A stretch of 64,000 nt of DNA from Pseudomonas phage BRkr. The DNA lies in the sequence record LC765218.1; one strand, given 5' to 3'. Positions 46,928-63,679 of this stretch are shown here, in pieces. A model generated the notes under the pieces. It was not told the DNA's origin and made no database searches. It saw only the letters and a program-made list of their open reading frames with translations. Within the stretch, counting starts at the first letter, position 1. Each line of letters opens with the position of its first letter. The position numbers and the translations under genes are program-made.

Positions 46928-47099
46928 TTAAAGGTTACGCACTATCATATGCGTTTCCTGATCCTTTACGATAGCTCTTTTACAATTTGGTTAAGCTGGG
47001 CTGAAATCCAGCGATCGACACGATGGGTTAGAGTCCCATCACCTTTAGGGGTCTTCCATCGGCTGATCCCTGTGACTAGTGTCACAACCAACCTTGAGC

Positions 47100-47131
47100 T
47101 CCCTCCCCTTGATCGGGGGAGGGGTTTATTT
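47100..47131 (+). terminator. hairpin CCCTCCCC-TTGATC-GGGGGAGGG + TTTATTTT
   Basis: GC-rich stem and T-run. Confidence 0.65.
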
Positions 47132-47157
47132 TGTCTCTCGTCAATAGGAACCTTCAA

Positions 47158-47625
47158 ATGGCAGTAACTCTTAAATTCCCTTTTATGCCGTCTCTTGAGC
47201 CAGCTGAGCTTACGGCTGTCATTCGCGATATCTATCTTGATCAATGCGCGGAGAAAGGCACGACTCCTCATCCCGAAGCATTTGAGCATCAGCCGGTTGT
47301 CCATGTAACGAATATGGTACATGGCGAGGGAGAAGATGTTCACTGGGCAGAAGATAGCGATAGTGAGAATCTACATATCTGCTTTACCTGCCCGCTGACT
47401 GGCGCACTTGCTAAGGTCGTCCAGCCTCTCAATTACACTGCCCCTATGAACAAGGTGTGTGTACGTCTCTGGATTGAGCATATGCTGCTCACCATGTTGG
47501 AACTTTTGCTGTTTACTCAAATGCAAGAACAAATTACAATAATGTCCAATGCAGCAAGCGAACGACGTACTATCATAACCAAATCCATCCATGCAAAGAA
47601 GGAGCAACTCGATGCAGCTCAGTGA
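47158..47625 (+). CDS. hypothetical protein
   Basis: ATG with RBS TAGGAA (track start is TTG). Confidence 0.55.
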   Translation: MAVTLKFPFMPSLEPAELTAVIRDIYLDQCAEKGTTPHPEAFEHQPVVHVTNMVHGEGEDVHWAEDSDSENLHICFTCPLTGALAKVVQPLNYTAPMNKVCVRLWIEHMLLTMLELLLFTQMQEQITIMSNAASERRTIITKSIHAKKEQLDAAQ

Positions 47626-48142
47626 TCTACGTATCCCCACTGAGATCATTCCTATTGGTCTGTGCTGTCTTTGGGCGCGCGAACAATACGTTGATCCAAA
47701 TGGCAATTATCTATTCACTACCAAAGAGGTTATTAGAGGTATCCATCTGGATAAGATGGTGGAAGAGTTTAATAAAGCTATGCGTGAACATTTCTATCAT
47801 AGCAACCACATCGAGATCACTCTCCATGGTATCGAAATCAAAGATAACAAAGTCCATTACTTTCATCAAGAACCTGCTGTTGAGTTCTATGATAAAGTGA
47901 AAGCACAGTATTGCAACGTTGAGCTGGCTCGTTATGATGCTGACGTAATGGACAAAGACCTGTTCTTTGATATGGTGTCGAAAGAAATCGCTGACCTGAG
48001 TAAGATGATCATGCAGCATATCTACTTTAAGTTTGACCGAGTACAAGCGGAGACCTGGTCTCGTTACCTGCTAGCACGTGGATCTAATAAAAGAAACGGG
48101 GCTGGTCTTGAGTCAGTTGACGTAGAAGTTAAACTCTCGTAA
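47612..48142 (+). CDS. hypothetical protein
   Basis: ATG with RBS AAGGAG; overlaps previous gene by 14 nt. Confidence 0.55.
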   Translation: MQLSDLRIPTEIIPIGLCCLWAREQYVDPNGNYLFTTKEVIRGIHLDKMVEEFNKAMREHFYHSNHIEITLHGIEIKDNKVHYFHQEPAVEFYDKVKAQYCNVELARYDADVMDKDLFFDMVSKEIADLSKMIMQHIYFKFDRVQAETWSRYLLARGSNKRNGAGLESVDVEVKLS

Positions 48143-48510
48143 AAGAATACTTGAGTTGTAATGATATACGAGGACTAATGTCCCAACAGAACAGAGGTCA
48201 CCCGGATCATCTCCCCTAAGGCTCCCCGTCGCCATATTAGGGTGCCGCAGTGACCTCACCTTATTCCCACTAGCTTTCGGTGTAAGTGGGCTCTCTCCGC
48301 ATAAGATCGGAGAGACTAACAGCGATCCATGCCAAAGGATCAAGCCGAAGCAGGTATATTGACTTGGCCGTCTTTATATCTGAAGTTACGACGGTTACTA
48401 CCTCCAGTTGAGAGGGGTATCCCCGAGTGGCGTTACCTAACCAGATGGGTGCCGACCCGTAATCGGTGCCTTAGCTGGCCAGCTTTCTGGTAAGGTAATC
48501 TAACGAATAG
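48143..48510 (+). ncRNA. candidate structured non-coding RNA (GC-rich, no ORF, ends in a terminator)
   Basis: about 370 nt without an ORF of 60 aa or more on either strand in a densely coded genome; GC-rich helical segments; followed by terminator 48511..48538. Confidence 0.35.
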
Positions 48511-48538
48511 CCCGCTCCGTTGAGGAGCGGGTTTTATT
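48511..48538 (+). terminator. hairpin CCCGCTCC-GTTGAG-GAGCGGG + TTTTATT
   Basis: perfect stem plus T-run. Confidence 0.7.
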
Positions 48539-48571
48539 CCGTCTCAGCTTGTAAACAGGAGAATATAAAGA

Positions 48572-49249
48572 ATGACTATTGTCATATGGGATGGTAAGGA
48601 TCTTTTGGTTGATCGAGTTACTACGATCACCCAGAGCGATATCACTGGAGAGGATGGTACACCACAACCATACTACGTGGAACTGGACAAGTCCAAGATC
48701 TATCTTGCTTCTGAGAACAAATGGGAAGCTAAAGTCTGGGGTCGAGCTATAAAAGCATTTACAATGGTTGGTGATACGGAACATCGTCATTGCTGGCTGA
48801 ATTTCTTGGAGACAGGAGATGATGTACATAGTCTAGCAGAGACCGCAAAGAATTTCCAACACCTGCTTACGCCTAATGCCGAATACATCCTCATCGATGA
48901 AGATAATGTTCTTCATGTGTTCGAATCAACCCATGACATGTTTAGGAGCAATTATTATTCCACGCCTGCACGTAAACCAATCATCTTTGGATGCGCTGTA
49001 GCAGTTGAACTGCTGAATAATGTATTCACTTCATCTGAGAACAAACTGAGTCCGTTGGAATGTATGGTTCTAGCGCAAGCGCATTATCCCGTTTTGGGTA
49101 GGCGGTTTGACCACTGGAATGCTGAATCTAATATACTCACACGTGACAACGACCTTAGTGATCGTGCACGTCATTGGGTTGCTAGTCGTGCGGTGAAAAA
49201 GATTTCGGTTAACTCTAAACCACGCCCAGTTAATATCGTAAATAGGTAA
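48572..49249 (+). CDS. hypothetical protein
   Basis: RBS CAGGAGAA. Confidence 0.6.
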   Translation: MTIVIWDGKDLLVDRVTTITQSDITGEDGTPQPYYVELDKSKIYLASENKWEAKVWGRAIKAFTMVGDTEHRHCWLNFLETGDDVHSLAETAKNFQHLLTPNAEYILIDEDNVLHVFESTHDMFRSNYYSTPARKPIIFGCAVAVELLNNVFTSSENKLSPLECMVLAQAHYPVLGRRFDHWNAESNILTRDNDLSDRARHWVASRAVKKISVNSKPRPVNIVNR

Positions 49250-53975: not shown

Positions 53976-54056
<81 letters not shown>

Positions 54057-54119
54057 ATTTGAATTGAGTACTGGAATCTACATCACTGAATACTCTCGTA
54101 TACTATTAGACACGAAGTA

Positions 54120-55700
54120 TTATTTTATTTCGTATTCGACTACGGGTGTTGTTTTAGATACATCACCACCAAATCGATAGACTCCATCGGATACAACTAA
54201 CATCTCTTCATACGAAGAAATAGCTGGGAAGGTATCTCCGATTAGTTCTGGCTCTTTATTAAGTTGCACCAAAGCTAATCGTGTTCCGGAGTTATTCGTC
54301 ACATAGATGTTATTACCGAATATGATTCCTCTATACGTCGAATATTTGTTGGCAGGCGCATTCAAAGGAATGACTTCAGTTGTACTAAAATCAGAACTAA
54401 TCTTTACGTAGTCCGTTGGCGAGATGTTTGTCCCACCTATTGTTAATCTACCTTGAGATGCAACGATAACTAATTCACCATTATCGTTAAATCCTAAATT
54501 ATGATGCCATAATTCAATTGGTAGAACATCAGCAATCATGCCGATTTCATATGTCGTAAGGTTAACTGTTATAATGTTCTTATGGATTTTATCACTGCGT
54601 CCAGAGAAACCACCAACAATGTACAGTATATCGTCTTTAACTATACTAGCTGTACGTTCGATGTAATATGCATCGACTAAACCTGGAATAGCAGCTAGCT
54701 TTTTAGTTTCCCATGTGTCGGTAGCTATCGTGTAAATATAAATAGTCGGACCAGTAGACAATGGGTTACCATGCAAAATCAACTTACCATTATTGTAAAC
54801 CATATTGGTTGTAGTTGTCTCGCCTTGGAACGGAACTGTAGATGGTAACTTGGTCCATGTTTTAGTATCTCGGTCTAACCGATGTAAGTCGGACATGAAC
54901 GTAGTAGGTCCTGTTGTATATCCACAGGCCATGTAAATATCGTTGTTATCCGAATCATACGCGAGTACTGGCATCCCACGTTGCGGCGGTGGATTTACAG
55001 TCGACAATACAGAGGTAATACCTTTAAGTTCCTTTGGCGGAATATATTCAAGTACCGGTCGCCATCCACGATAACTAGTAGCTTCTGTTGGCGGATGACC
55101 ATCGTAAATATAAAGGCCATTCTTTGCCTGAGGATGAGTTGTCGATGGTGAAAACTGTAGGTAATTACCATTGGTATTTCTATTAGCCGCCCAGTTATAA
55201 CTTCCGTTTCCGGCGCCTATAAGTTGTTCATCTGTGTACTTTGCCCAACTTCCTTTAGTTGTAACATTGCCAAAAATATCCCACAATTCAGAACCTTCAT
55301 TACCTTGAGTAGCGATATCCGAATAAGGATTTACTCCAGCATTCATTAGACGAACTTTAAACATGTTCCCATCGATTACAATAACTTTACTACCATCTAT
55401 TAAACCAGCCTCGTCAAGTTGGTTTGGACTAATGGAATGGAGAATAGCTGTCTTCGAATAATAAAGAATAACATTATTTCTAGATACTTTAATCCAACCA
55501 GCATCTGTATTTATAGTACCAATGGAGTCAAGCTCAACAAGTGTTCTTAACTGAGGGTAAGTTATAAACTTGTCGCTTGTCAACTCACCATACAGACCAA
55601 GTGTCGAATCACCTTGTTCAAAGGTAGATGGACCCGGTAGTTTATTTCCTGTAGCCTTAATGAGTGCAGACAATAATGATTCGAACATAATTTTATCCAT
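54120..55700 (-). CDS. Kelch-repeat beta-propeller protein 1 (candidate tail fibre/receptor-binding protein); N-terminus MDKIMFESLLSAL
   Basis: repeated hydrophobic-GG Kelch blades; MFExLL motif 4 codons after the first ATG. Confidence 0.75.
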   Translation of the reverse strand: MDKIMFESLLSALIKATGNKLPGPSTFEQGDSTLGLYGELTSDKFITYPQLRTLVELDSIGTINTDAGWIKVSRNNVILYYSKTAILHSISPNQLDEAGLIDGSKVIVIDGNMFKVRLMNAGVNPYSDIATQGNEGSELWDIFGNVTTKGSWAKYTDEQLIGAGNGSYNWAANRNTNGNYLQFSPSTTHPQAKNGLYIYDGHPPTEATSYRGWRPVLEYIPPKELKGITSVLSTVNPPPQRGMPVLAYDSDNNDIYMACGYTTGPTTFMSDLHRLDRDTKTWTKLPSTVPFQGETTTTNMVYNNGKLILHGNPLSTGPTIYIYTIATDTWETKKLAAIPGLVDAYYIERTASIVKDDILYIVGGFSGRSDKIHKNIITVNLTTYEIGMIADVLPIELWHHNLGFNDNGELVIVASQGRLTIGGTNISPTDYVKISSDFSTTEVIPLNAPANKYSTYRGIIFGNNIYVTNNSGTRLALVQLNKEPELIGDTFPAISSYEEMLVVSDGVYRFGGDVSKTTPVVEYEIK

Positions 55701-55823
55701 TGAAAAGTGACTGTTTACAGAGGGGTGGCTGTATAGAACTTCACGTTCCTACTCCCTTTCCGTCTAAGGCCTCCCCATTATAGGTACTTACCAAAAGACT
55801 AAATCATACAATTTGCAACATAA

Positions 55824-55844
55824 AGCCCGCCTTTCGGCAGGCCT
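55824..55844 (-). terminator. hairpin after tRNA-Leu
   Basis: AGCCCGCC-TTTC-GGCAGGCCT; one wobble/mismatch. Confidence 0.4.
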
Positions 55845-55852
55845 TATTAAAA

Positions 55853-55938
55853 TGGTAGGAGCAGAGGGACTCGAACCCACAGTGCCTTACGACGGCTGGA
55901 CCTAAACCAGCTGGCTATACCAATTCGCCTATGCTCCC
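55853..55938 (-). tRNA. tRNA-Leu (anticodon UAG), type II
   Basis: acceptor GGGAGCA/TGCTCCT with G1-U72, anticodon stem GCTGG/CCAGC, loop TTTAGGT, long variable arm, T-loop TTCGAGT, CCA encoded. Confidence 0.7.
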
Positions 55939-55996
55939 ATGTAAAATAGCGCTTAACGCTAATTCTTACATATAATCACTATACCAGTATTTCTTT

Positions 55997-56935
55997 TCAC
56001 GGGTTTTCTGGATCGTAAACCCACAGGTCATTATGATAGACACCATTTGTATAACCACCAGATAAATAAATCTTACCGTTATAAACTTCCATATTGGCGT
56101 AGAACCGAGTAGGCGGCATCTTACCAGGAGGAAGAATTATATTTGACCATGTGTCAGTTTCAATATCGTAAACACTGAAAATATGATCGTTATTAATAGT
56201 GTTAGGAGTAGAACTTGTACCAGATTGACCACCGAATACATAGATCTTATTGTTAAGAGCTACGGCAGAATGTCTGTTCCTATTTACAAGACCATTCTTG
56301 TGGGGTGTCCATGTATTGTTGTCGACATTATAACTTCTGAATGTGGCAACTGACGTATTAGCTGTTTCATAGCCACCTAACGTGTAGAGGCGTCGACCAT
56401 GACTTGTTAAAGTCGCATAACGAATTTGATAAGGTGGTGTCAAGTTAGCTACTGTGAAGTTATCGGTATTATAGCTCTTAAATTCATACATAATACCTTG
56501 TGCACCGTTACCACCAAATAGGTACACCTTATTATCAATAGCTGACATGCAATGACTGTTACGTACGGCCAATCCACCATTAGAGCGTGTTACAGGTGTA
56601 ATTGTCTCACCATCAATCGTAAACTCAATCATCGTGTTTGTATCAGCAGAACCAGTGTATCCACCGAATACATAAAACTTGTTATCAACTAAACCACCAG
56701 CTGCACGTAAATTAACGTTTGCTCCTGCCGGTAGTTCTTTCCATTCGTCTGTTAAGAAATCATAGACGGATACAGTATTGAACGCGTTAGTGGTAGCACG
56801 TCTACCACCGAAGATATAAAGTTTGTCTCCTACGACAACAGAGGTTGACTGGTTTCTTCCGACGTCGGGTCCCTGTAGCTGAACCCAACCTTGCTTACTT
56901 TTATATTCCCCAATTCCTAACAATGCTTCAAACAT
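55997..56935 (-). CDS. Kelch-repeat beta-propeller protein 2; N-terminus MFEALLGIGEY
   Basis: blades LYIFGG, FYVFGGYTG, VYLFGGNG, LYTLGGYE, IYVFGGQSG, IYLSGGYTNG. Confidence 0.8.
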   Translation of the reverse strand: MFEALLGIGEYKSKQGWVQLQGPDVGRNQSTSVVVGDKLYIFGGRRATTNAFNTVSVYDFLTDEWKELPAGANVNLRAAGGLVDNKFYVFGGYTGSADTNTMIEFTIDGETITPVTRSNGGLAVRNSHCMSAIDNKVYLFGGNGAQGIMYEFKSYNTDNFTVANLTPPYQIRYATLTSHGRRLYTLGGYETANTSVATFRSYNVDNNTWTPHKNGLVNRNRHSAVALNNKIYVFGGQSGTSSTPNTINNDHIFSVYDIETDTWSNIILPPGKMPPTRFYANMEVYNGKIYLSGGYTNGVYHNDLWVYDPENP

Positions 56936-56969
56936 AACGATTACCTTTCGTCAAAATCATAACATATAA

Positions 56970-56985
56970 CCTCCCCGAAGGGAGG
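56970..56985 (-). terminator. hairpin CCTCCC-TTCG-GGGAGG (minus-strand reading)
   Basis: embedded in ACATAA...TTATGT. Confidence 0.55.
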
Positions 56986-56995
56986 CTTTATGTTT

Positions 56996-57211
56996 TTAAT
57001 CTTGATTAGCTAACCATTCTTTAAGAAGAGCAACGAAATTGACAGGCTCTTTTACAATTTGACCATTTCGACAAACTGGTACTTTTTCAATATTCGGGTC
57101 ATCCATAATTGGTCGATACCATTCCTGGAATTTCTTATTCAGGTCCCGACTAAAAATTTCCGTAATGAGTGCGCCAAGTCCATCGTCTTGGAACGGAGCG
57201 GTTTCGTACAT
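56996..57211 (-). CDS. hypothetical small protein (start MYETAPFQ)
   Basis: ATG at 57211 with RBS AGAGGAA; overlaps the 3' end of the upstream ORF by 72 nt. Confidence 0.35.
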   Translation of the reverse strand: MYETAPFQDDGLGALITEIFSRDLNKKFQEWYRPIMDDPNIEKVPVCRNGQIVKEPVNFVALLKEWLANQD

Positions 57212-57498
57212 TTTTGTTCCTCTGTAGTTATAGCAAGTTTTACAAGGGCTAGCCGGTGGGTTACCCAAGCTGTAATGAAATCTCCACGTGTAGTACAATC
57301 GTAGCTTACATGTGCTTGATATTCAGGATGGTTAATATTGAATTTATCTATGACCTTAGACCGTAGATAGTCTTCGGCTGCTTTTGTTGACATCCCTTCT
57401 ATATTTGGGAATTCTTCAATAAGTAGCTCTGACAACATTTTATTTCTTGAAGCTAGGTCTATATCAGCCTCAGTATGACATGGCATGAAAGCTGTCAT
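57139..57498 (-). CDS. hypothetical protein
   Basis: strong RBS AAAGAGGTAACC before the ATG. Confidence 0.55.
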   Translation of the reverse strand: MTAFMPCHTEADIDLASRNKMLSELLIEEFPNIEGMSTKAAEDYLRSKVIDKFNINHPEYQAHVSYDCTTRGDFITAWVTHRLALVKLAITTEEQKCTKPLRSKTMDLAHSLRKFLVGT

Positions 57499-57500
57499 GG

Positions 57501-57692
57501 TTACCTCTTTACATCCTTTGACATACTGTTATATAGCCCAGTATAAAACGACATAAAACTCTCCTTATCGGAGAGTCGTATATCGGATATCAAAACCAGT
57601 CTCTTTTTGATCATGACATCCATCGTGAGGTGACAGTTAGTGGAACTGAAGAGACACCTTTCCGTATGGTCGGCCCAATCGACTTCCCTCAA
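57501..57692 (-). CDS. hypothetical small protein
   Basis: ORF ends 2 nt before the next start. Confidence 0.35.
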   Translation of the reverse strand: MREVDWADHTERCLFSSTNCHLTMDVMIKKRLVLISDIRLSDKESFMSFYTGLYNSMSKDVKR

Positions 57693-57849
57693 TCATCGGC
57701 TTACCACTATTAGCCTTTGGTTTCCAGGTGCTATAAATGGTCACATCGAAATACTACAGTCTACTGGGCCTAATGTGAGATGTTTCTACAGGCAGCTTTC
57801 GATGAAGTAACTTTGTTCGTTACATACTGTAACCAACAGAGTATTTTTT

Positions 57850-57996
57850 TTAATCTAACGTACAGAGTACACCGATTAAACGGAACGGGCAGGTCAAGAC
57901 CCACCAAATAGCTTCAAATACTGCACCAATTATTTCACCAACTACATTGAGGGCTTGTCGCCCTTTATGCTGTTTTTCTTTTTTGACATCGGTCAT
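57850..57996 (-). CDS. very small membrane protein (48 aa, 1 TM)
   Basis: TAATGA-coupled to the upstream small ORF; hydrophobic VVGEIIGAVFEAIWWVLTCPF; below track cutoff. Confidence 0.3.
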   Translation of the reverse strand: MTDVKKEKQHKGRQALNVVGEIIGAVFEAIWWVLTCPFRLIGVLCTLD

Positions 57997-57998
57997 TA

Positions 57999-58169
57999 TT
58001 AACAAACCATAATTGGTACTTCAAGACCATTGCGTTCACAATGTTCTTCAAGTTTACGTTGAGCTTGGTTGAACTTAGCTAGTTCTTCAAGAGTTTTCTT
58101 TTGGTTATCAGCAAGTTGTTCTGGACTCTGACAATCGCGAATTGCTTTTATAGAAAGATTAGGAATCAT
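57999..58169 (-). CDS. very small protein (56 aa)
   Basis: ATG with RBS GGGTGA 3 nt after the upstream gene's stop; below track cutoff. Confidence 0.3.
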   Translation of the reverse strand: MIPNLSIKAIRDCQSPEQLADNQKKTLEELAKFNQAQRKLEEHCERNGLEVPIMVC

Positions 58170-58172
58170 AGG

Positions 58173-58707
58173 TCACCCGAAAGATTTACGTGCATCTGCT
58201 TCATTATCAAACAAACGACAACCCCAGATATAAGCTGCATCCAGTTCACCCCGGAAACAGTCTTTAACTTCTTTACTAGCTGTCTTCATGTAGTTATCTA
58301 CTGCATCTAAGAAAGAGTAACCTTCAGCTTTACCTACAAAGCTAGCTATACTGGATTCACCAGTAGCTCGATGACCTTCTTGCCAAATCTCATACTCTTT
58401 CTTCTTAAGTACAGTACCACGTTGTTCTTCTAAGACTTTCATTACTTGATCAAAGTCTTCATAACCCATGCGACTGAGACGAGCAATGAGACTTTGCTGT
58501 GCTTTACCATCTAACAACGTCTCATGCATCTCTTTGGTGGCTTCTAGGTACACGCCGTTTTGGAGGAGGATCAAGAAGTCATTAAACTTCATATATTCAC
58601 CACCCTCGTTATCTAAGACCATCTTAGTCTCATTGACAGTGTCCTGTGGACTCAATAGAATCTTAGGCACTGCGGGCGACCAACGTTTAATCAAACTTAA
58701 TGCTGAC
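58173..58707 (-). CDS. hypothetical protein
   Basis: ATG at 58707 with RBS AAAGGAAA (the track's first ATG at 58736 abuts the terminator hairpin). Confidence 0.55.
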
Positions 58708-58739
58708 ATGTTATTTCCTTTTGTAATAGTTGACATAAA

Positions 58740-58759
58740 GCTCTCCCCGAAGGGAGAGC
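58740..58759 (-). terminator. hairpin GCTCTCCC-TTCG-GGGAGAGC (minus-strand reading) + TTTATGT
   Basis: just downstream of tRNA-Tyr. Confidence 0.6.
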
Positions 58760-58772
58760 ACTATGACGCATT

Positions 58773-58860
58773 GGTGGAGAGGACTGGACTCGAACCAGTA
58801 ATGCCCGATACGGACGGCTGATTTACAGTCAGCTGGGGTTACCAATTTTCCTATCTCTCC
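58773..58860 (-). tRNA. tRNA-Tyr (anticodon GUA), type II
   Basis: acceptor GGAGAGA/CCTCTCC (A7-C66 mismatch), anticodon stem GCTGA/TCAGC, loop CTGTAAA, long variable arm, T-stem ACTGG/CCAGT, CCA encoded. Confidence 0.75.
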
Positions 58861-58904
58861 GAAATCTGGTATAGTCTTACATAGTATTACTATACCAGTA
58901 TTTA

Positions 58905-60752
58905 TTAAATTCCAAGACGATAGAACTTGTCTGTAATTGTATTATTACTGGCTCCAGTTAGACCACCGCCAACATATGCTGTGCCATTAATAAATCCACC
59001 ATAGCCATCATTCACACCGTTTGGTAGTTCTGGTAGTTTACGCCAAGTTCTCGATTGGATATTATACGCATTGGCTTTTCTACGTTTGTCTTCGTCAACA
59101 CCGCCAATGTATATAATTTCTTCATCGTTAGTCAGCATTACACCGTAACTGTTAACACCTGGCCCATCGGTAGTCGGTAGAGACTCCCATGCAAATGTAT
59201 TCATATTCATTCGATCAAATCGACCGGATTGCGAACCATTTACAAATCCACCATAGACATACATGTACTCGCCGACAACAACCGCTCTATGTGAAGATCG
59301 TTGGATACCACCTTGCGCGACTCGTTTTGACCACATGTTAGATGCAATATCGTAGACGAACAACGCGTCAGATTCATTATTCCCGCCAAGCAAATAGAGC
59401 TTACCATTATAATGAACCATCGTAGCTTGTGTTCTAAATACTGGATTAGATGAACCCGGAGAAGCGGGTGTAATAGCCGTCCAATCATTGGTCGCTACGT
59501 TATAACGCCAGAAATCCGCTGATTGGTTAGATCCACTGAATAGGTACATATGTGTATCATTTGCAGCTGCACACATATTGGCACGTGCACTCGGACTTAA
59601 ACCAGATCCAGTGAATAGACCGTTCCATGTATTAGTCTCAGGATTATATTTATTAAACGCGCCTCTATATGCACCTGTACTTGTATACCCGCCGAACATA
59701 TACAGTTCATCATCTATTACAACCGCAGTGGAACCTCGACTATCATAAGGTGCGTTTGCCATTACTTCCCATTCAGTTTTACTTGGAGGGATAGGAATAG
59801 TGAATTTATAGATAGCTGCTTTCGTTCTTTCAGGGGTGTTAAAAAGGGCATCATCGATAACAATGTCCGAACCACCGATCAGATACAGATCGCCATTCGA
59901 TGGATTTAATGCGACTGATGTCCCATGGACCTCACCAATATTCGTCTCAGTAACAACAAATTGTTTTTCGGCGATATAATAACGAACACAATGAATCTTA
60001 CCATCTTTAACGATAGTGTAGTTAAAAGTCCCGTTCCAGTACTTACCACCTTGATGACCACCGTGGTAGTCTGTAGAGTATGAATGGTACAATGTCCATG
60101 TATTAATAGCACCGGTGTATTTATAAACATCTTGGTTAACAACCCAACTGCCAGAGATGTTCTTCCATCCACCCATCACATAGAAATTCCCTTTATGGCA
60201 GAATGCATACGCTCCAGATAGAATAACAGGGCACCGGGCACTCATTACTTCTCGAACGTTATTCGATAGTCTATAGCGAATCAAAAGATCTGTTGCATGT
60301 TCCAGTACCCAAATAAATTCACCGCCATCCCAATCGCCGATACTGTTATAAGTGGATGTATTCATCAACTGATTACTAATAAGATTATCATTAGGTACAG
60401 TTGGATTGATCATCGTGATGACGTTTTGTGTCCAAGAAGCGCCACGACGCCCACCGAACATGTAAAGTCTATCGGATGTTGGAACAAATACACCCGCCGT
60501 ATGACAAAGTGAATAACTATTTTGGACAGCTGTTTTACTGATTTGAGTACCAGTGCTATCAAAAATTCTGATGTTATTATCAGTTGTACTTCTTGATGGG
60601 GCACCACTATTAATATTTAATAAACCATTTCTGAAATAGGGTACCGATCCAACCAATCCAACATCCAGTTGTCCAAACAATGTTGGTTGGTTATACGGTA
60701 TCATTTCCACTGGCTTAGCTTGCCCAGCAGCTGATAACAATAATTCAAACAT
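58905..60752 (-). CDS. Kelch-repeat beta-propeller protein 3 (615 aa); N-terminus MFELLLSAAGQ
   Basis: at least 9 Kelch-like blades (LYMFGGRRG, FYVMGGW, LYLIGGSD, LYMFGGYTS, MYLFSGSN, LYLLGGNN, MYVYGGF, IYIGGVDED, AYVGGGLTG). Confidence 0.8.
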   Translation of the reverse strand: MFELLLSAAGQAKPVEMIPYNQPTLFGQLDVGLVGSVPYFRNGLLNINSGAPSRSTTDNNIRIFDSTGTQISKTAVQNSYSLCHTAGVFVPTSDRLYMFGGRRGASWTQNVITMINPTVPNDNLISNQLMNTSTYNSIGDWDGGEFIWVLEHATDLLIRYRLSNNVREVMSARCPVILSGAYAFCHKGNFYVMGGWKNISGSWVVNQDVYKYTGAINTWTLYHSYSTDYHGGHQGGKYWNGTFNYTIVKDGKIHCVRYYIAEKQFVVTETNIGEVHGTSVALNPSNGDLYLIGGSDIVIDDALFNTPERTKAAIYKFTIPIPPSKTEWEVMANAPYDSRGSTAVVIDDELYMFGGYTSTGAYRGAFNKYNPETNTWNGLFTGSGLSPSARANMCAAANDTHMYLFSGSNQSADFWRYNVATNDWTAITPASPGSSNPVFRTQATMVHYNGKLYLLGGNNESDALFVYDIASNMWSKRVAQGGIQRSSHRAVVVGEYMYVYGGFVNGSQSGRFDRMNMNTFAWESLPTTDGPGVNSYGVMLTNDEEIIYIGGVDEDKRRKANAYNIQSRTWRKLPELPNGVNDGYGGFINGTAYVGGGLTGASNNTITDKFYRLGI

Positions 60753-60820
60753 GAGTATGCTCTCAAGTAAACCATTTAGTTCATAAGATAATCAGTTTGA
60801 ATAAGTTGTAGGATGTATTG

Positions 60821-61477
60821 CTATTTCGTTATGGTTAACTCAACTTTTAAATACGCTCCGGGACTTGGAGGGTCATTAGGTTCAATAACCCGGAACGTTA
60901 TCGTATCCCCATATTTTTCTTTAATAGCCGATTCGAACGCATATATCGAAACATATTTATTATCTACAAAAATGTCGAAGGTTAGAACTGGTGGAATTGT
61001 CCTATATTCAGGGCTGGCCGGTGCCATATTTTCAGTTAAATAGATTAATGCTTCAGTTACACGTGTATCAATTTGGTATAGTAAATCATCTAACATTTCT
61101 ATATTGGTTAATCGTCCAACATTTCTATCATCCTTAATTATTTTATCGGCCAACTGTTTAGGTACAGGTGATAAAATAACATGTTTTCCTTTATATGCTT
61201 CAGCATGAGGTAATGGATCTTCTATTAAAAATACATTAATAAATCCAAATCCATCATACTCAATATCGTGTGTAGATGTATTTATGCCTAGTGACAGTAC
61301 TCCCTCACGTAACATATAGCCTTTAGCTAACACCTCATATGAATCAAGTGTTCTATGATATTTTGATCCATCTTCTATATGAGGACCACCATGGGTTCTA
61401 TGTCCTACAGCATTTATAACCTTAACTTCCATAAGGTTACTGTCATCTAAAAACAGGCCTTTTGATCTATTCAACAT
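60821..61477 (-). CDS. hypothetical protein
   Basis: RBS TAGGAGAT. Confidence 0.6.
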   Translation of the reverse strand: MLNRSKGLFLDDSNLMEVKVINAVGHRTHGGPHIEDGSKYHRTLDSYEVLAKGYMLREGVLSLGINTSTHDIEYDGFGFINVFLIEDPLPHAEAYKGKHVILSPVPKQLADKIIKDDRNVGRLTNIEMLDDLLYQIDTRVTEALIYLTENMAPASPEYRTIPPVLTFDIFVDNKYVSIYAFESAIKEKYGDTITFRVIEPNDPPSPGAYLKVELTITK

Positions 61478-61526
61478 TTTCAGTATCTCCTATAACTCCG
61501 ATATTGGAGTATAACATCACGGCATA

Positions 61527-61552
61527 AAAGAGTAGCCAATGGCTACTCTTTT
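61527..61552 (-). terminator. hairpin AAAAGAGTAGCC-AAT-GGCTACTCTTTT immediately 3' of the tRNA 3' fragment
   Basis: same repeat family as 62214..62237. Confidence 0.5.
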
Positions 61553-61557
61553 GAATT

Positions 61558-61590
61558 TGGCTCCGCGACCTGGACTCGAACCAGGGACCC
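61558..61590 (-). pseudogene. tRNA 3' half (T-arm CCTGG-TTCGAGT-CCAGG + acceptor 3' strand TCGCGGA-G-CCA)
   Basis: canonical T-arm and CCA end; acceptor strand is the exact complement of the 5' fragment at 62341..62374. Confidence 0.6.
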
Positions 61591-61603
61591 AGTATATTTT
61601 TTT

Positions 61604-62161
61604 TTATTGTGTGGGGACCAAGGTGCTAATACCCCCATTAGCACCGACCCTAATAAACCTAGCCGGAATATTGATCTTGTATGCTCGGCACCATTTACGA
61701 ATAGCGTTATCGGATACTCCATACTTCTCTCCTATTTTTACAAGTGATAGCAATGTAACATCGAGGGCAAGTTGTTCTTTGGATGGTCGATCCACCTTAC
61801 GACGACCTTTGGCTGAACACTCGGGGCTACAGAATGTTATCAGTCGGTGACTAATGACAATACCACAGCCAGCACAAAGCTTAGTTGGATAGTTCCTAGG
61901 ATCAATACCGAGCCGTTTCATCCAACCATGTAACTTCATGTGTTGTGACTGAGGGAGAATCAATAAGTTCTCTGGATGGTTGTTAAGCTTATTCTCATCC
62001 AGATGATGAACTTCCTCGTCATCGTAAAGTGGTCTACCTAATGTGTCTTCTCCAACCACTCGATGTTCGTAAACCCATCCAAACATTTTAGGGTTAGCTA
62101 TGGCTTGACGATGTTCGGGTAAATATAATGCCCTATAGCCGTTAATTATTTTCTCTTTCAT
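61604..62161 (-). CDS. HNH homing endonuclease (paralog 2)
   Basis: VHHLDENKLNNHPENL; about 70% identical to paralog 1 over the conserved core. Confidence 0.85.
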   Translation of the reverse strand: MKEKIINGYRALYLPEHRQAIANPKMFGWVYEHRVVGEDTLGRPLYDDEEVHHLDENKLNNHPENLLILPQSQHMKLHGWMKRLGIDPRNYPTKLCAGCGIVISHRLITFCSPECSAKGRRKVDRPSKEQLALDVTLLSLVKIGEKYGVSDNAIRKWCRAYKINIPARFIRVGANGGISTLVPTQ

Positions 62162-62213
62162 ATCGAACCTAGGATATATAAATAGATCGCTAGTTCGATC
62201 TATGTGACGGAAT

Positions 62214-62237
62214 AAAGAGTAGCCGGAGCTACTCTTT
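62214..62237 (-). terminator. hairpin AAAGAGTAGC-TCCG-GCTACTCTTT 3' of the nested tRNA
   Basis: repeat of the 61527 hairpin. Confidence 0.5.
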
Positions 62238-62242
62238 GAAAT

Positions 62243-62329
62243 TGGCTGGTAAGGTAGGATTCGAACCTACGATGGGCTTTCGCCAACGGATTAACAGTCC
62301 GCCCCCTGCTACCGCTCGGGTACTTACCA
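62243..62329 (-). tRNA. unusual tRNA: anticodon GUU (Asn-type anticodon arm identical to E. coli tRNA-Asn) with a long type-II-like variable arm
   Basis: perfect acceptor TGGTAAG/CTTACCA, D-arm CCC-GAGCGGTAGCA-GGG, anticodon stem GCGGA/TCCGT, loop CTGTTAA, 15-nt variable arm with GGC-GAAA-GCC hairpin, T-arm GTAGG-TTCGAAT-CCTAC, CCA encoded. Confidence 0.6.
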
Positions 62330-62340
62330 AGAAAACTATC

Positions 62341-62374
62341 CAGTCGCTTGCTCTACCGACTGAGCTATCGCGGA
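62341..62374 (-). pseudogene. tRNA 5' half (acceptor TCCGCGA + D-arm GCTCAGTCGGTAGAGC)
   Basis: canonical 5' tRNA half with no matching 3' partner nearby; complements the 3' fragment 760 nt downstream. Confidence 0.6.
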
Positions 62375-62470
62375 AGAATTATTAACAACTTCTTTCTTGT
62401 AGAAAAATCACAAGTAACTGAATTACAGTATTTCACTACATATTATTACAATCTGAGTTAGATAGTTATT

Positions 62471-63478
62471 TTAATCAATGGCTAATGGTGCTAGTTTTAC
62501 CTGATAGATACCTGATAACAATTGGCTTTTTAACATATATGCTCCACCACCAACTGGCATTTTAGATCCACCTGCAATGATCATGCTATTATCTGGTCCT
62601 TTGGCTATAGATGAAATATTAAGGAATCCAATACCTAGTTCAAATGGTTCAGCCCATTTCCGGCGCCTAATATTAAAACGCTGTGCAAACATTTTAGTTA
62701 CACCGCCGACATCAACTGCATTAAGGTAATTAAAATATTCCCCATCTACATAACCATTACCTTGCCATATTGTTGCTTTGTCAGCAGGTATTATTAGCCA
62801 TGGTGTTAGTTCCCATACAAGTGTAGTAACATTGTATCTATAGACTTCTAAGTTTGGTATGTTCTTAGTATTATCCCAGCCACCAAAATGGTAGAAATAA
62901 CCATTATAATAAAATAATTGTTGACCTGACCTAGGTCCACCGCTATAGTCTTGACCGCCGAGCCAGTTCTTAGTCGATGGTTTTAATCGCATGGCGTTTG
63001 TACCAACTGGATTAACACACATAATAAGATCATTGCCATCAGACGCTGACGCAGTTCCCCATAATGCACCAGGACCACTATAACGCTCAACGCGACTACC
63101 TGTGCTTATATCAAAATGTTGTATAAAGTTAGAAGTACCTGTACCCCCATCACCTGCTGCGTTCCATCCAGTAATACCACCATAAACAATAAAGTTATTT
63201 TTATGTAATGTACCAAATCCAAGTGATACACCCGGTAAAAATGTACCAGATGCTGTTGCGCTTATCTCTGTAAATGGGTTTATAGTGAACCGTCTGAAAA
63301 CAGTTGCTGCTGATTGTCCTTCCGTATGATGTCCGGATCCAACATATAACGTATTTCCATCTACGTACGACATCGTACCTGCCAATGCTACCGGTAGGTC
63401 ACCTAATTTTATAATTTCACTAAATCCAACCAAGGGTGTTTCATCGCCTAAACCTGATGATAATAGTAATTCAAACAT
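62471..63478 (-). CDS. Kelch-repeat beta-propeller protein 4; N-terminus MFELLLSSGLG
   Basis: blades LYVGSG, FIVYGG, YFYHFGGW; 5' UTR nearly identical to that of protein 3. Confidence 0.75.
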   Translation of the reverse strand: MFELLLSSGLGDETPLVGFSEIIKLGDLPVALAGTMSYVDGNTLYVGSGHHTEGQSAATVFRRFTINPFTEISATASGTFLPGVSLGFGTLHKNNFIVYGGITGWNAAGDGGTGTSNFIQHFDISTGSRVERYSGPGALWGTASASDGNDLIMCVNPVGTNAMRLKPSTKNWLGGQDYSGGPRSGQQLFYYNGYFYHFGGWDNTKNIPNLEVYRYNVTTLVWELTPWLIIPADKATIWQGNGYVDGEYFNYLNAVDVGGVTKMFAQRFNIRRRKWAEPFELGIGFLNISSIAKGPDNSMIIAGGSKMPVGGGAYMLKSQLLSGIYQVKLAPLAID

Positions 63479-63556
63479 GAGTGTGCTCTCAAGTAAATCA
63501 TTTTAGATCATAGGATAACCTTTGCGGCTCAGATATTTATTTTATTATAATAGACA

Positions 63557-63592
63557 GCATAATGCCTCCCTTAAATAGGGGAGGCATTATGC
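63557..63592 (-). terminator. long hairpin GCATAATGCCTCCC-TTAAATA-GGGGAGGCATTATGC 3' of the CAU tRNA
   Basis: 14 bp inverted repeat. Confidence 0.5.
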
Positions 63593-63602
63593 TTTATTAA
63601 TT

Positions 63603-63679
63603 TGGTGGGTCCAGCAGGACTTGAACCTGCGACCAAGCGATTATGAGTCGCCTGCTCTAACCAACTGAGCTATAGACCC
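63603..63679 (-). tRNA. tRNA with anticodon CAU; anticodon and T arms match the tRNA-Ile2 (lysidine) type
   Basis: 77 nt cloverleaf; GGCGA-CTCATAA-TCGCT-TGGTC-GCAGG-TTCAAGT-CCTGC nearly identical to E. coli ileX; CCA encoded. Confidence 0.8.

Follow-up and report, generated by a model that had tools for sequence, protein, structure and literature searches.

A structured non-coding RNA gene kept at one genomic position in phiKZ-like Pseudomonas jumbo phages

The 64,000-nucleotide (nt) stretch of Pseudomonas phage BRkr DNA analysed here (LC765218.1, hereafter the window, whose numbering is used unless another sequence is named) contains a non-coding gap at 48143-48571, between the plus-strand open reading frames (ORFs) 47591-48142 and 48572-49249 of the ORF list. 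The gap is a gene whose product is a structured non-coding RNA, about 369 nt long and read from the plus strand. In a megablast search, the segment 47591-49249 matched seven records of Pseudomonas aeruginosa jumbo phages (about 300 kb) with 79-99% identity: phiHQ, PS119XW (two records), HHBS36_1, PA1C, phiLBG22, and HPP-Temi. The genus of these relatives is Pawinskivirus wherever one is assigned, and the window comes from a phage of the PS119XW/PA1C type. The stretch homologous to the gap is intergenic in the annotation of PS119XW and PA1C.

A preliminary description of the sequence had pointed to a GC-rich island ending in a strong terminator as a candidate structured RNA. The G+C content of the gap is indeed 0.499 against a window mean of 0.431, at the 98th percentile of 429-nt segments, and that of the RNA proper is 0.526. 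For the plus strand of the gap, the folding energy is -146.7 kcal/mol; compared with dinucleotide shuffles, z is -4.5 for this strand and -2.7 for the minus strand. The better fold of the plus strand, together with several G-U pairs in the helices, identifies it as the transcribed strand. The further statement that no ORF of 60 amino acids or more is present was not strictly true: a 76-amino-acid ORF with a TTG start lies on the minus strand at 48113-48343. Another minus-strand ORF, of 109 amino acids (48500-48829), overlaps the 3' edge of the gap. None of the ORFs of the gap has a counterpart in phage PhiPA3, and they are taken as spurious for that reason.

No tRNA or tmRNA was detected by ARAGORN within 48143-48571, and no group I or group II intron model scored in the Rfam searches; by eye, neither a cloverleaf nor an obvious group I core had been recognised. 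At the gathering threshold, Rfam 15 recognized five tRNAs in the window, all of them outside the gap. At E values up to 10, the gap gave only weak matches driven by the terminator, the best being Thr_leader with 21.8 bits against a threshold of 55. The Rfam/Infernal scan suggested in the preliminary description was run, and no family was matched at gathering or permissive thresholds, the models of introns, RNase P, tmRNA, SRP, 6S, and riboswitches included. Rfam likewise held no family for the copies from PhiPA3, 201phi2-1, Viktualia, phiKZ, and an IMG/VR contig (L184) that are described below.

The RNA is better conserved than the genes around it. The predicted RNA is 93.0% identical to its HPP-Temi counterpart, compared with 73.9% for the upstream gene and 74.2% for the downstream gene. 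In a sensitive blastn search, its first 160 nt were matched in the gap that separates gp354 from gp355 of PhiPA3, a phage of another genus. The PhiPA3 copy is about 70-78% identical to the window RNA, whereas for the protein of the downstream gene the identity is only 32.5%; the nucleotide identities of the PhiPA3 flanking genes were left unused, as they are an artefact of free end gaps. In the full-length alignment, long invariant blocks are separated by helices with compensatory changes, the terminator stem included, a pattern that points to selection on an RNA and not on a protein.

An nhmmer profile made from the window clade and PhiPA3, without phiKZ, matched the 166-nt gap between PHIKZ288 and PHIKZ289 of phiKZ (our locus L055:2182-2285, E = 7e-8) and, more weakly, the equivalent gap of Psa21. 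The gaps of phiKZ, Psa21, RVTF4, and D6 follow one plan, in which a promoter-like block precedes a hairpin of about 75 nt, and the short tail ACCUAUU and a terminator come after it. A covariance model built on this core hairpin (R1) found one copy in the window (104.8 bits) and matched phiKZ, PhiPA3, RVTF4, Psa21, Viktualia, D6, Phabio, 201phi2-1, and several IMG/VR contigs. Further loci were fetched via the conserved gp287-like protein. The R1 hairpin was present in 17 of the 20 IMG/VR loci with a gp287 homologue plus 5 metagenome loci, and locus L194 gave a weaker, position-consistent match. All R1 matches among the fetched loci lie on the plus strand, 1.2-3.3 kb downstream of the gp287-like gene. 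About 20 distinct phiKZ-like phages and contigs thus have the core hairpin at a corresponding place in the genome, and the next gene is gp289-like in the window, PhiPA3, and phiKZ. These RNAs form a family whose place in the genome is constant among the phiKZ-like jumbo phages of Pseudomonas that form a nucleus; as far as sampled, the family occurs only in Pseudomonas phiKZ-like phages.

IMG/VR scans with the long invariant blocks returned PhiPA3 only; with a loose three-block pattern of the core, the matches listed from IMG/VR were mostly random, and R1 was used as the filter. The pattern GCTTTCGGTGT...AAGCCGAAGC occurs 44 times in 185,579 bacterial and archaeal genomes. We regard these matches as chance because they lie in unrelated, mostly coding contexts and have no profile similarity, and no host-derived copy was found with this pattern in those genomes.

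When the core was folded sequence by sequence, nearly every member took the same shape: helices P1 of 7-8 bp, P1b of 3-5 bp, P2 of 5-7 bp, and P3 of 3-5 bp, an asymmetric internal loop NNNAUCUC opposite UG, and an apical loop YNCCCGUC. Two single-stranded patches are invariant, AUCUC in the internal loop and CCCGUC in the apical loop. In the window, the core occupies 48194-48257 of the plus strand. P1 pairs 48194-48201 with 48250-48257, P1b pairs 48203-48205 with 48245-48247, P2 pairs 48214-48219 with 48237-48242, and P3 pairs 48220-48222 with 48231-48233. The internal loop AUCAUCUC (48206-48213) lies opposite UG at 48243-48244, and the apical loop UCCCCGUC spans 48223-48230. A conserved single-stranded tail, ACCUUAUUC, follows at 48258-48266 (family consensus NCCUAU/A, from alignments).

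For a measure of covariation, the helix positions beside the invariant anchors were cut out and joined to strings of equal length, which MAFFT aligned without gaps. Standard pairs make up 96.6% of the core cells compared with 68.3% in shuffles, none of the 500 shuffles being as high, and 38-50% of the cells are paired when the partners are slid by 1-3 columns. Both sides have changed in 15 of the 18 pairs and in 94 cells. The comparison with relatives that the preliminary description had called for thus supports a folded RNA through compensatory base changes. The apical loop CCCGUC could form a pseudoknot with CGACG (48390-48394) in the window and in PhiPA3; this pairing is not conserved in the 201phi2-1 clade and was dropped.

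The ends of one family member have been mapped in phiKZ. The transcription start site of the middle-class promoter P130 is 263172, the last base of ...AACAAATACTTGCAGTAATACCATATGT, and the intrinsic terminator T119 has a mapped 3' end at 263292 (Putzeys et al. 2024, 10.1101/2023.10.13.562163 / PMC10914365). The unit from P130 to T119, TU198, is 120 nt long and contains no coding sequence (CDS), and its longest read continues through PHIKZ289 (10.1101/2023.10.13.562163). The 120-nt sequence was tabled in the same study as a "5'UTR-derived" (UTR, untranslated region) non-coding RNA candidate of PHIKZ289, and T119 also ends the upstream operon transcripts TU195 and TU197 (10.1101/2023.10.13.562163). 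TU198 is the orthologue of the window RNA. Both have the core hairpin with its common helices and the invariant AUCUC, CCCGUC, and UG. Both are encoded on the plus strand after a gp287 homologue and before a gp289-like gene, with a middle-promoter motif immediately upstream and an intrinsic terminator at the 3' end. They differ in length, as phiKZ has a 120-nt short form whose terminator comes 13 nt after the core, whereas the window RNA carries a folded extension of 270 nt. In the literature searched, the RNA is described nowhere beyond these phiKZ table rows, with no structure, family, or function. New relative to that literature are the structure common to the family, the invariant loops, and the conserved 270-nt extension; the family is uncatalogued in Rfam and its phiKZ member was known before only as a table entry.

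The window has a phiKZ-type middle promoter at 48141-48169 on the plus strand, with an A-rich run and TACT at 48141-48151 and GTAATGATATAC at 48158-48169. This block, AAAAGAATACTTGAGTTGTAATGATATAC, aligns with P130 and agrees with the published description of the phiKZ middle motif, in which an A-rich run is followed by a TACT whose centre lies about 22 nt before the start site (PMC8244752). A corresponding block is present upstream of every family member. By homology with the mapped phiKZ ends, the window RNA is predicted to start near 48170 and to end near 48538, which would give a plus-strand primary transcript of about 369 nt (48170-48538, ends +/- 2 nt). It is probably made like its phiKZ orthologue and, by that analogy, would accumulate as an RNA of about 370 nt. 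The reading as a structured RNA that ends in a terminator was upheld: the RNA is better conserved than the flanking genes, most of its helices show compensatory changes, a phage-type promoter lies at its 5' end, and the transcript of the orthologue has been mapped.

The terminator itself was confirmed by a terminator scan as CCCGCTCC-GTTGA-GGAGCGGG at 48511-48531, then TTTTATT; in the RNA, the plus-strand element CCCGCUCC-GUUGA-GGAGCGGG with UUUUAUU spans 48511-48538. Its stem covaries, being CCCCGCCC/GGGCGGGG in PhiPA3 and changed likewise in other relatives. The gp289-like gene downstream has its Shine-Dalgarno AGGAG and its ATG at 48558-48574 (plus strand), which are reached only via read-through of the terminator. 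In PS119XW, the terminator loop is TCAAC (L001:3929-3933), the reverse complement of the GTTGA of the window (48519-48523), between identical stems; the difference is an inversion of the hairpin loop between two near-identical phages. After the terminator, the sequence UUUAU(U/G)(C/U)CG, often followed by UCUCAAGGAG, recurs in family members (48532-48546 in the window). It is also found at the unrelated phiKZ terminator T120 and seems to be a general terminator signature in these phages.

The RNA is built of two modules, the hairpin common to the family (64 nt in the window) and a multi-helix extension of about 270 nt (P5-P7 and H5-H10) in some lineages only. Core and terminator are about 13 nt apart in the short forms (phiKZ, Psa21, RVTF4, D6, Phabio, and several contigs). 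In the long forms, carried by the window clade, PhiPA3, 201phi2-1, Viktualia, and the loci L195, L198, L206, and L194, with a divergent version in L184, about 250-290 nt lie between the two. A covariance model of the extension built from three Pawinskivirus sequences alone (R2) matched PhiPA3 (58 bits, E 4e-13), 201phi2-1 (29 bits, E 2e-5), L195 (29 bits, E 2e-5), L198 (27.5 bits, E 6e-5), and L194 (20.7 bits, E 0.004). Each match begins at the end of the core, abutting it, and R2 found none in the short-form loci. When RNAalifold was run separately on the window clade with PhiPA3 and on the 201phi2-1/Viktualia clade, the same layout was obtained, with P5 around two hairpins and then H7. The strands CUUUCGG, CCGAAGC, GAAGUUA, AGUGGCG, and CUGGCCAG are invariant among the long forms.

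Between these strands the helices vary and stay paired. The stem of H6 is GAUCC, GCAGC, GGAGA, AGGGG, or GACCA by lineage, always paired and always with the loop NCCAA. P6 is GUUAC/GUGGC in the window, GUUAC/GUAGC in PhiPA3 and L206, and GUUAU/AUAGC in Viktualia, L198, and L194. P7 changes from CCAGA/UCUGG to CUGGA/UCCAG in HPP-Temi, within the genus, and in the other clade from CUGAC/GUCAG (Viktualia) to CUGGU/ACCAG (L198). In a joined alignment of P5, H6, P6, and H10, 97.5% of the cells are paired and 8 pairs have changed on both sides. In 500 shuffles, the observed values for cells paired, for pairs and cells with changes on both sides, and for the covariation score were never reached; 20 of the shuffles attained the observed count of further pair types.

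In the window, all elements of the extension are on the plus strand. Domain 1 (48273-48351) consists of the long-range helix P5, in which GCUUUCGG at 48273-48280 pairs with CCGAAGC at 48345-48351, both strands being invariant in all long forms, and of the two hairpins that it encloses, H5 (48292-48299 with 48308-48315) and H6 (48324-48328 with 48337-48341, loop AUGCCAAA). H7 is a long hairpin at 48352-48381 with the apical loop UUGGCC; PhiPA3 and the 201phi2-1/Viktualia clade have another stem sequence with a UGG-containing loop. P6 pairs GUUAC at 48385-48389 with GUGGC at 48427-48431 and encloses small hairpins (H8) within 48385-48431. P7 (48433-48445 with 48486-48498) encloses H9 and H10. 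H9 (48447-48455 with 48463-48471) has compensatory changes in HPP-Temi; the complementary segments GGGTGCCG...CGGTGCC that had been picked out by eye form this predicted hairpin, at 48447-48471. H10, AGCU-GGCC-AGCU at 48473-48484, has CACU/AGUG as its stem in PhiPA3. At the other end of the RNA, upstream of the core, hairpin H1 (GGAC-UAAU-GUCC, 48172-48183) is GGAA-ACAU-UUCC in PhiPA3, a compensatory change from C-G to A-U. In 201phi2-1 and Viktualia, a further 5' domain of about 100 nt (L177:1558-1666 and L008:1537-1633), with conserved hairpins of its own, lies between start site and core, and these RNAs are thus about 470-480 nt long.

We hold with moderate confidence, the identity of the gene being included in this estimate, that the RNA acts in trans, as a structured RNA that would present its invariant loops to a conserved partner. 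As suggested by the phiKZ orthologue, the phage non-virion RNA polymerase would start at the middle promoter near 48170, most transcripts would stop at the intrinsic terminator near 48538 and yield a discrete RNA, and a minority would read through and carry the message of the next gene. The covarying scaffold would then present AUCUC and CCCGUC to the partner, likelier a protein than another RNA, and the extension could form a second folded domain for further contact or stability. Action in trans is favoured because the invariant nucleotides are the unpaired ones, because the spacing between core and terminator varies freely from 13 to about 270 nt, and because the gene after the terminator differs among phages (gp289-like, a small ORF, gp425-like, or other). 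Pfam and PHROG searches gave no function for the neighbouring and downstream proteins.

Several points weigh against this explanation. The transcript evidence comes from the phiKZ short form and not from this phage or any long form. For P2 and P1b, the 3' partner was taken as the best-pairing segment around the invariant UG, and this slightly biases the core pairing figures in favour of the structure. P5 never varies in sequence among the long forms and is, for this reason, backed by conservation and energy and not by covariation. The present tests do not separate binding of a protein, pairing with an RNA, and a cis effect on the polymerase. Every member, moreover, lies directly between a promoter and a terminator, with a ribosome-binding site about 10-25 nt after the latter, a layout like that of a leader or attenuator.

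This layout could mean that the folded RNA is a cis-acting leader setting read-through into the downstream gene, either as an attenuator that depends on a factor or ligand or as a processive antitermination RNA staying on the phage polymerase, as the put RNAs of phage HK022 do on the host polymerase with two short stem-loops. We consider this, the main rival, possible, if rather unlikely. The put RNAs resemble the window RNA in being folded between promoter and first terminator, with covarying stems and conserved loops; there is no homology. In all members a promoter comes first, then the structured RNA, a strong terminator, a ribosome-binding site, and finally the gene, and the core, with its covarying stems and invariant loops, is a conserved structured domain such as the sensor of an attenuator or riboswitch. 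In phiKZ, both the terminated 120-nt species and read-through reads are seen, and the authors of the map propose regulation via premature termination (PMC10914365). However, no mutually exclusive terminator/antiterminator pairing was seen by inspection of six members, no systematic search being made, and the terminators differ freely in sequence from member to member with no corresponding changes in the core. A spacing of 13 versus about 270 nt disfavours direct coupling of sensor and terminator, although put-like action at a distance would tolerate a 270-nt insert. The downstream gene that a leader would regulate is not of a consistent class, and in phiKZ the same terminator also serves the operon transcripts TU195 and TU197.

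The invariant loops are single-stranded and could instead pair with nucleic acid partners. The exposed AUCUCC would then pair with ribosome-binding sites of the GGAGAU type as a mimic of the 16S rRNA 3' end, or the loops would pair with other mRNAs as in a small RNA. The window GGAUCAUCUCC is one base off the 16S rRNA 3' end, GGAUCACCUCC; the family invariant, however, is AUCUC and not CCUCC, and other members are further from 16S rRNA (GGAACAUCUCC, GGGGCUAUCUCUC). With seeds of only 5-6 nt and an elaborate 270-nt folded extension, unusual for RNAs of that type, such pairing is improbable. By-eye likenesses to RNase P helix P4, signal recognition particle RNA, and the 16S rRNA 3' end had no support from Rfam scores or family invariants. 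The degenerate intron put forward in the preliminary description, or a remnant of another mobile element, would account for a long form in some lineages and a short one in others, and homing-endonuclease genes are located nearby in relatives (phiKZ gp296, Psa21_392). It fails on the flanking ORFs, which are complete, separate genes with their own stop and start, and on the lack of any scoring intron model; the gp289-like gene is intact where only a 150-nt short form, or no element, sits upstream, and the promoter and terminator of the element are conserved, the element itself being under stronger purifying selection than its neighbours. We give this origin hardly any credence. The same applies to small protein-coding genes and to a site acting as DNA, such as an origin or a protein-binding array, both very improbable here. 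ORFs of 41, 54, and 76 amino acids do exist in the gap and two GenBank records (HHBS36_1 and HPP-Temi) annotate CDSs at the locus, but the ORFs are not conserved in PhiPA3 and the stem substitutions are compensatory and not codon-periodic. Against a DNA site, G-U pairs make the helices strand-specific, pointing to RNA, and repeats of the kind found at origins did not show up in the sequence.

For the long form (370-480 nt), a bolder proposal can be made. It might belong to a novel class of large RNAs with several folded domains, specific to jumbo phages that form a nucleus. Such an RNA would be the core of a ribonucleoprotein of the phage, or would assemble by itself or act as a catalyst, ranking with GOLLD, ROOL, and OLE, and the conserved hairpin would be its module for docking to a protein or the polymerase. 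We consider this doubtful. The window RNA resembles GOLLD, ROOL, HEARO, and OLE in its several hundred nt and many covarying helices, in having no known function, and in that such RNAs are often phage-borne; it differs in that the Rfam models of these RNAs match no long or short member. The T4 RNAs C and D, to which the preliminary description had compared it, are stable phage RNAs without known function, processed from a tRNA cluster transcript. This analogy holds only loosely, as the window RNA comes with a promoter and a terminator of its own, and 5.4 kb separate it from the nearest tRNA gene, which lies on the opposite strand. RNAs of the same kind are sRNA005 of 201phi2-1 and the small RNA of the phiKZ gp182 5'UTR, which are promoter-proximal, bounded by a terminator, and conserved in position in phiKZ-like jumbo phages (PMC11512511). 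The 201phi2-1 sRNA005 lies at another locus, upstream of a tail gene, and is below 250 nt (PMC11512511); it is set apart by locus and size, not by sequence comparison. The 201phi2-1 study retained only units below 250 bp (PMC11512511), and a long form of about 470 nt at gp424/gp425 would for that reason have been filtered out.

A defined structure is available for few non-coding RNAs of phages, and conservation across genera is known for almost none. The RNA described here is the best-conserved feature of its neighbourhood in the phiKZ-like phages, which build a protein "nucleus" and use RNA polymerases of their own. Two invariant loops on a covarying scaffold offer precise sites for mutation, and the phiKZ short form, whose ends are already mapped, is open to study in a model system. 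RNAs as large and complex as the long form often prove to be cores of ribonucleoproteins or ribozymes. A practical gain is that several GenBank records with hypothetical CDSs over the RNA can be corrected. Such CDSs are annotated in HHBS36_1 (L006:1644-1769), HPP-Temi (L002:3696-3913), and Viktualia (L008:1586-2036), and are probably spurious. In 201phi2-1, the annotated start of gp425 (L177:1977) is upstream of the RNA terminator; a start just past the terminator and its ribosome-binding site fits better.

Some further observations were made in the neighbourhood. PhiPA3 gp354 (L003:3600-4004), directly upstream of the RNA, is annotated as a putative phage integrase and has no Pfam match at E up to 0.01. 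Gene shuffling, by which the two window genes upstream of the RNA would be the downstream genes of Viktualia, was considered and rejected, as no protein similarity was found. A second non-coding gap, at 46928-47135 on the plus strand, matches the phiKZ unit TU196 in its 5' part, UCCUUUACGAUAGCUCUUUU, and in its terminator (47100-47124). In phiKZ, TU196 is an 89-nt unit without CDS that runs from the early promoter P129 to T118 (10.1101/2023.10.13.562163). The window copy is about 180 nt long, and its middle resembles a tRNA anticodon arm (GCUGG-GCUGAAAU-CCAGC) and T arm (GAUGGG-UUAGAGU-CCCAUC); ARAGORN and Rfam called no tRNA in 46928-47135. Five tRNA genes (Thr, Leu, Tyr, Asn, and Met) are scattered on the minus strand at 53976-63679, 5-15 kb downstream of the RNA.

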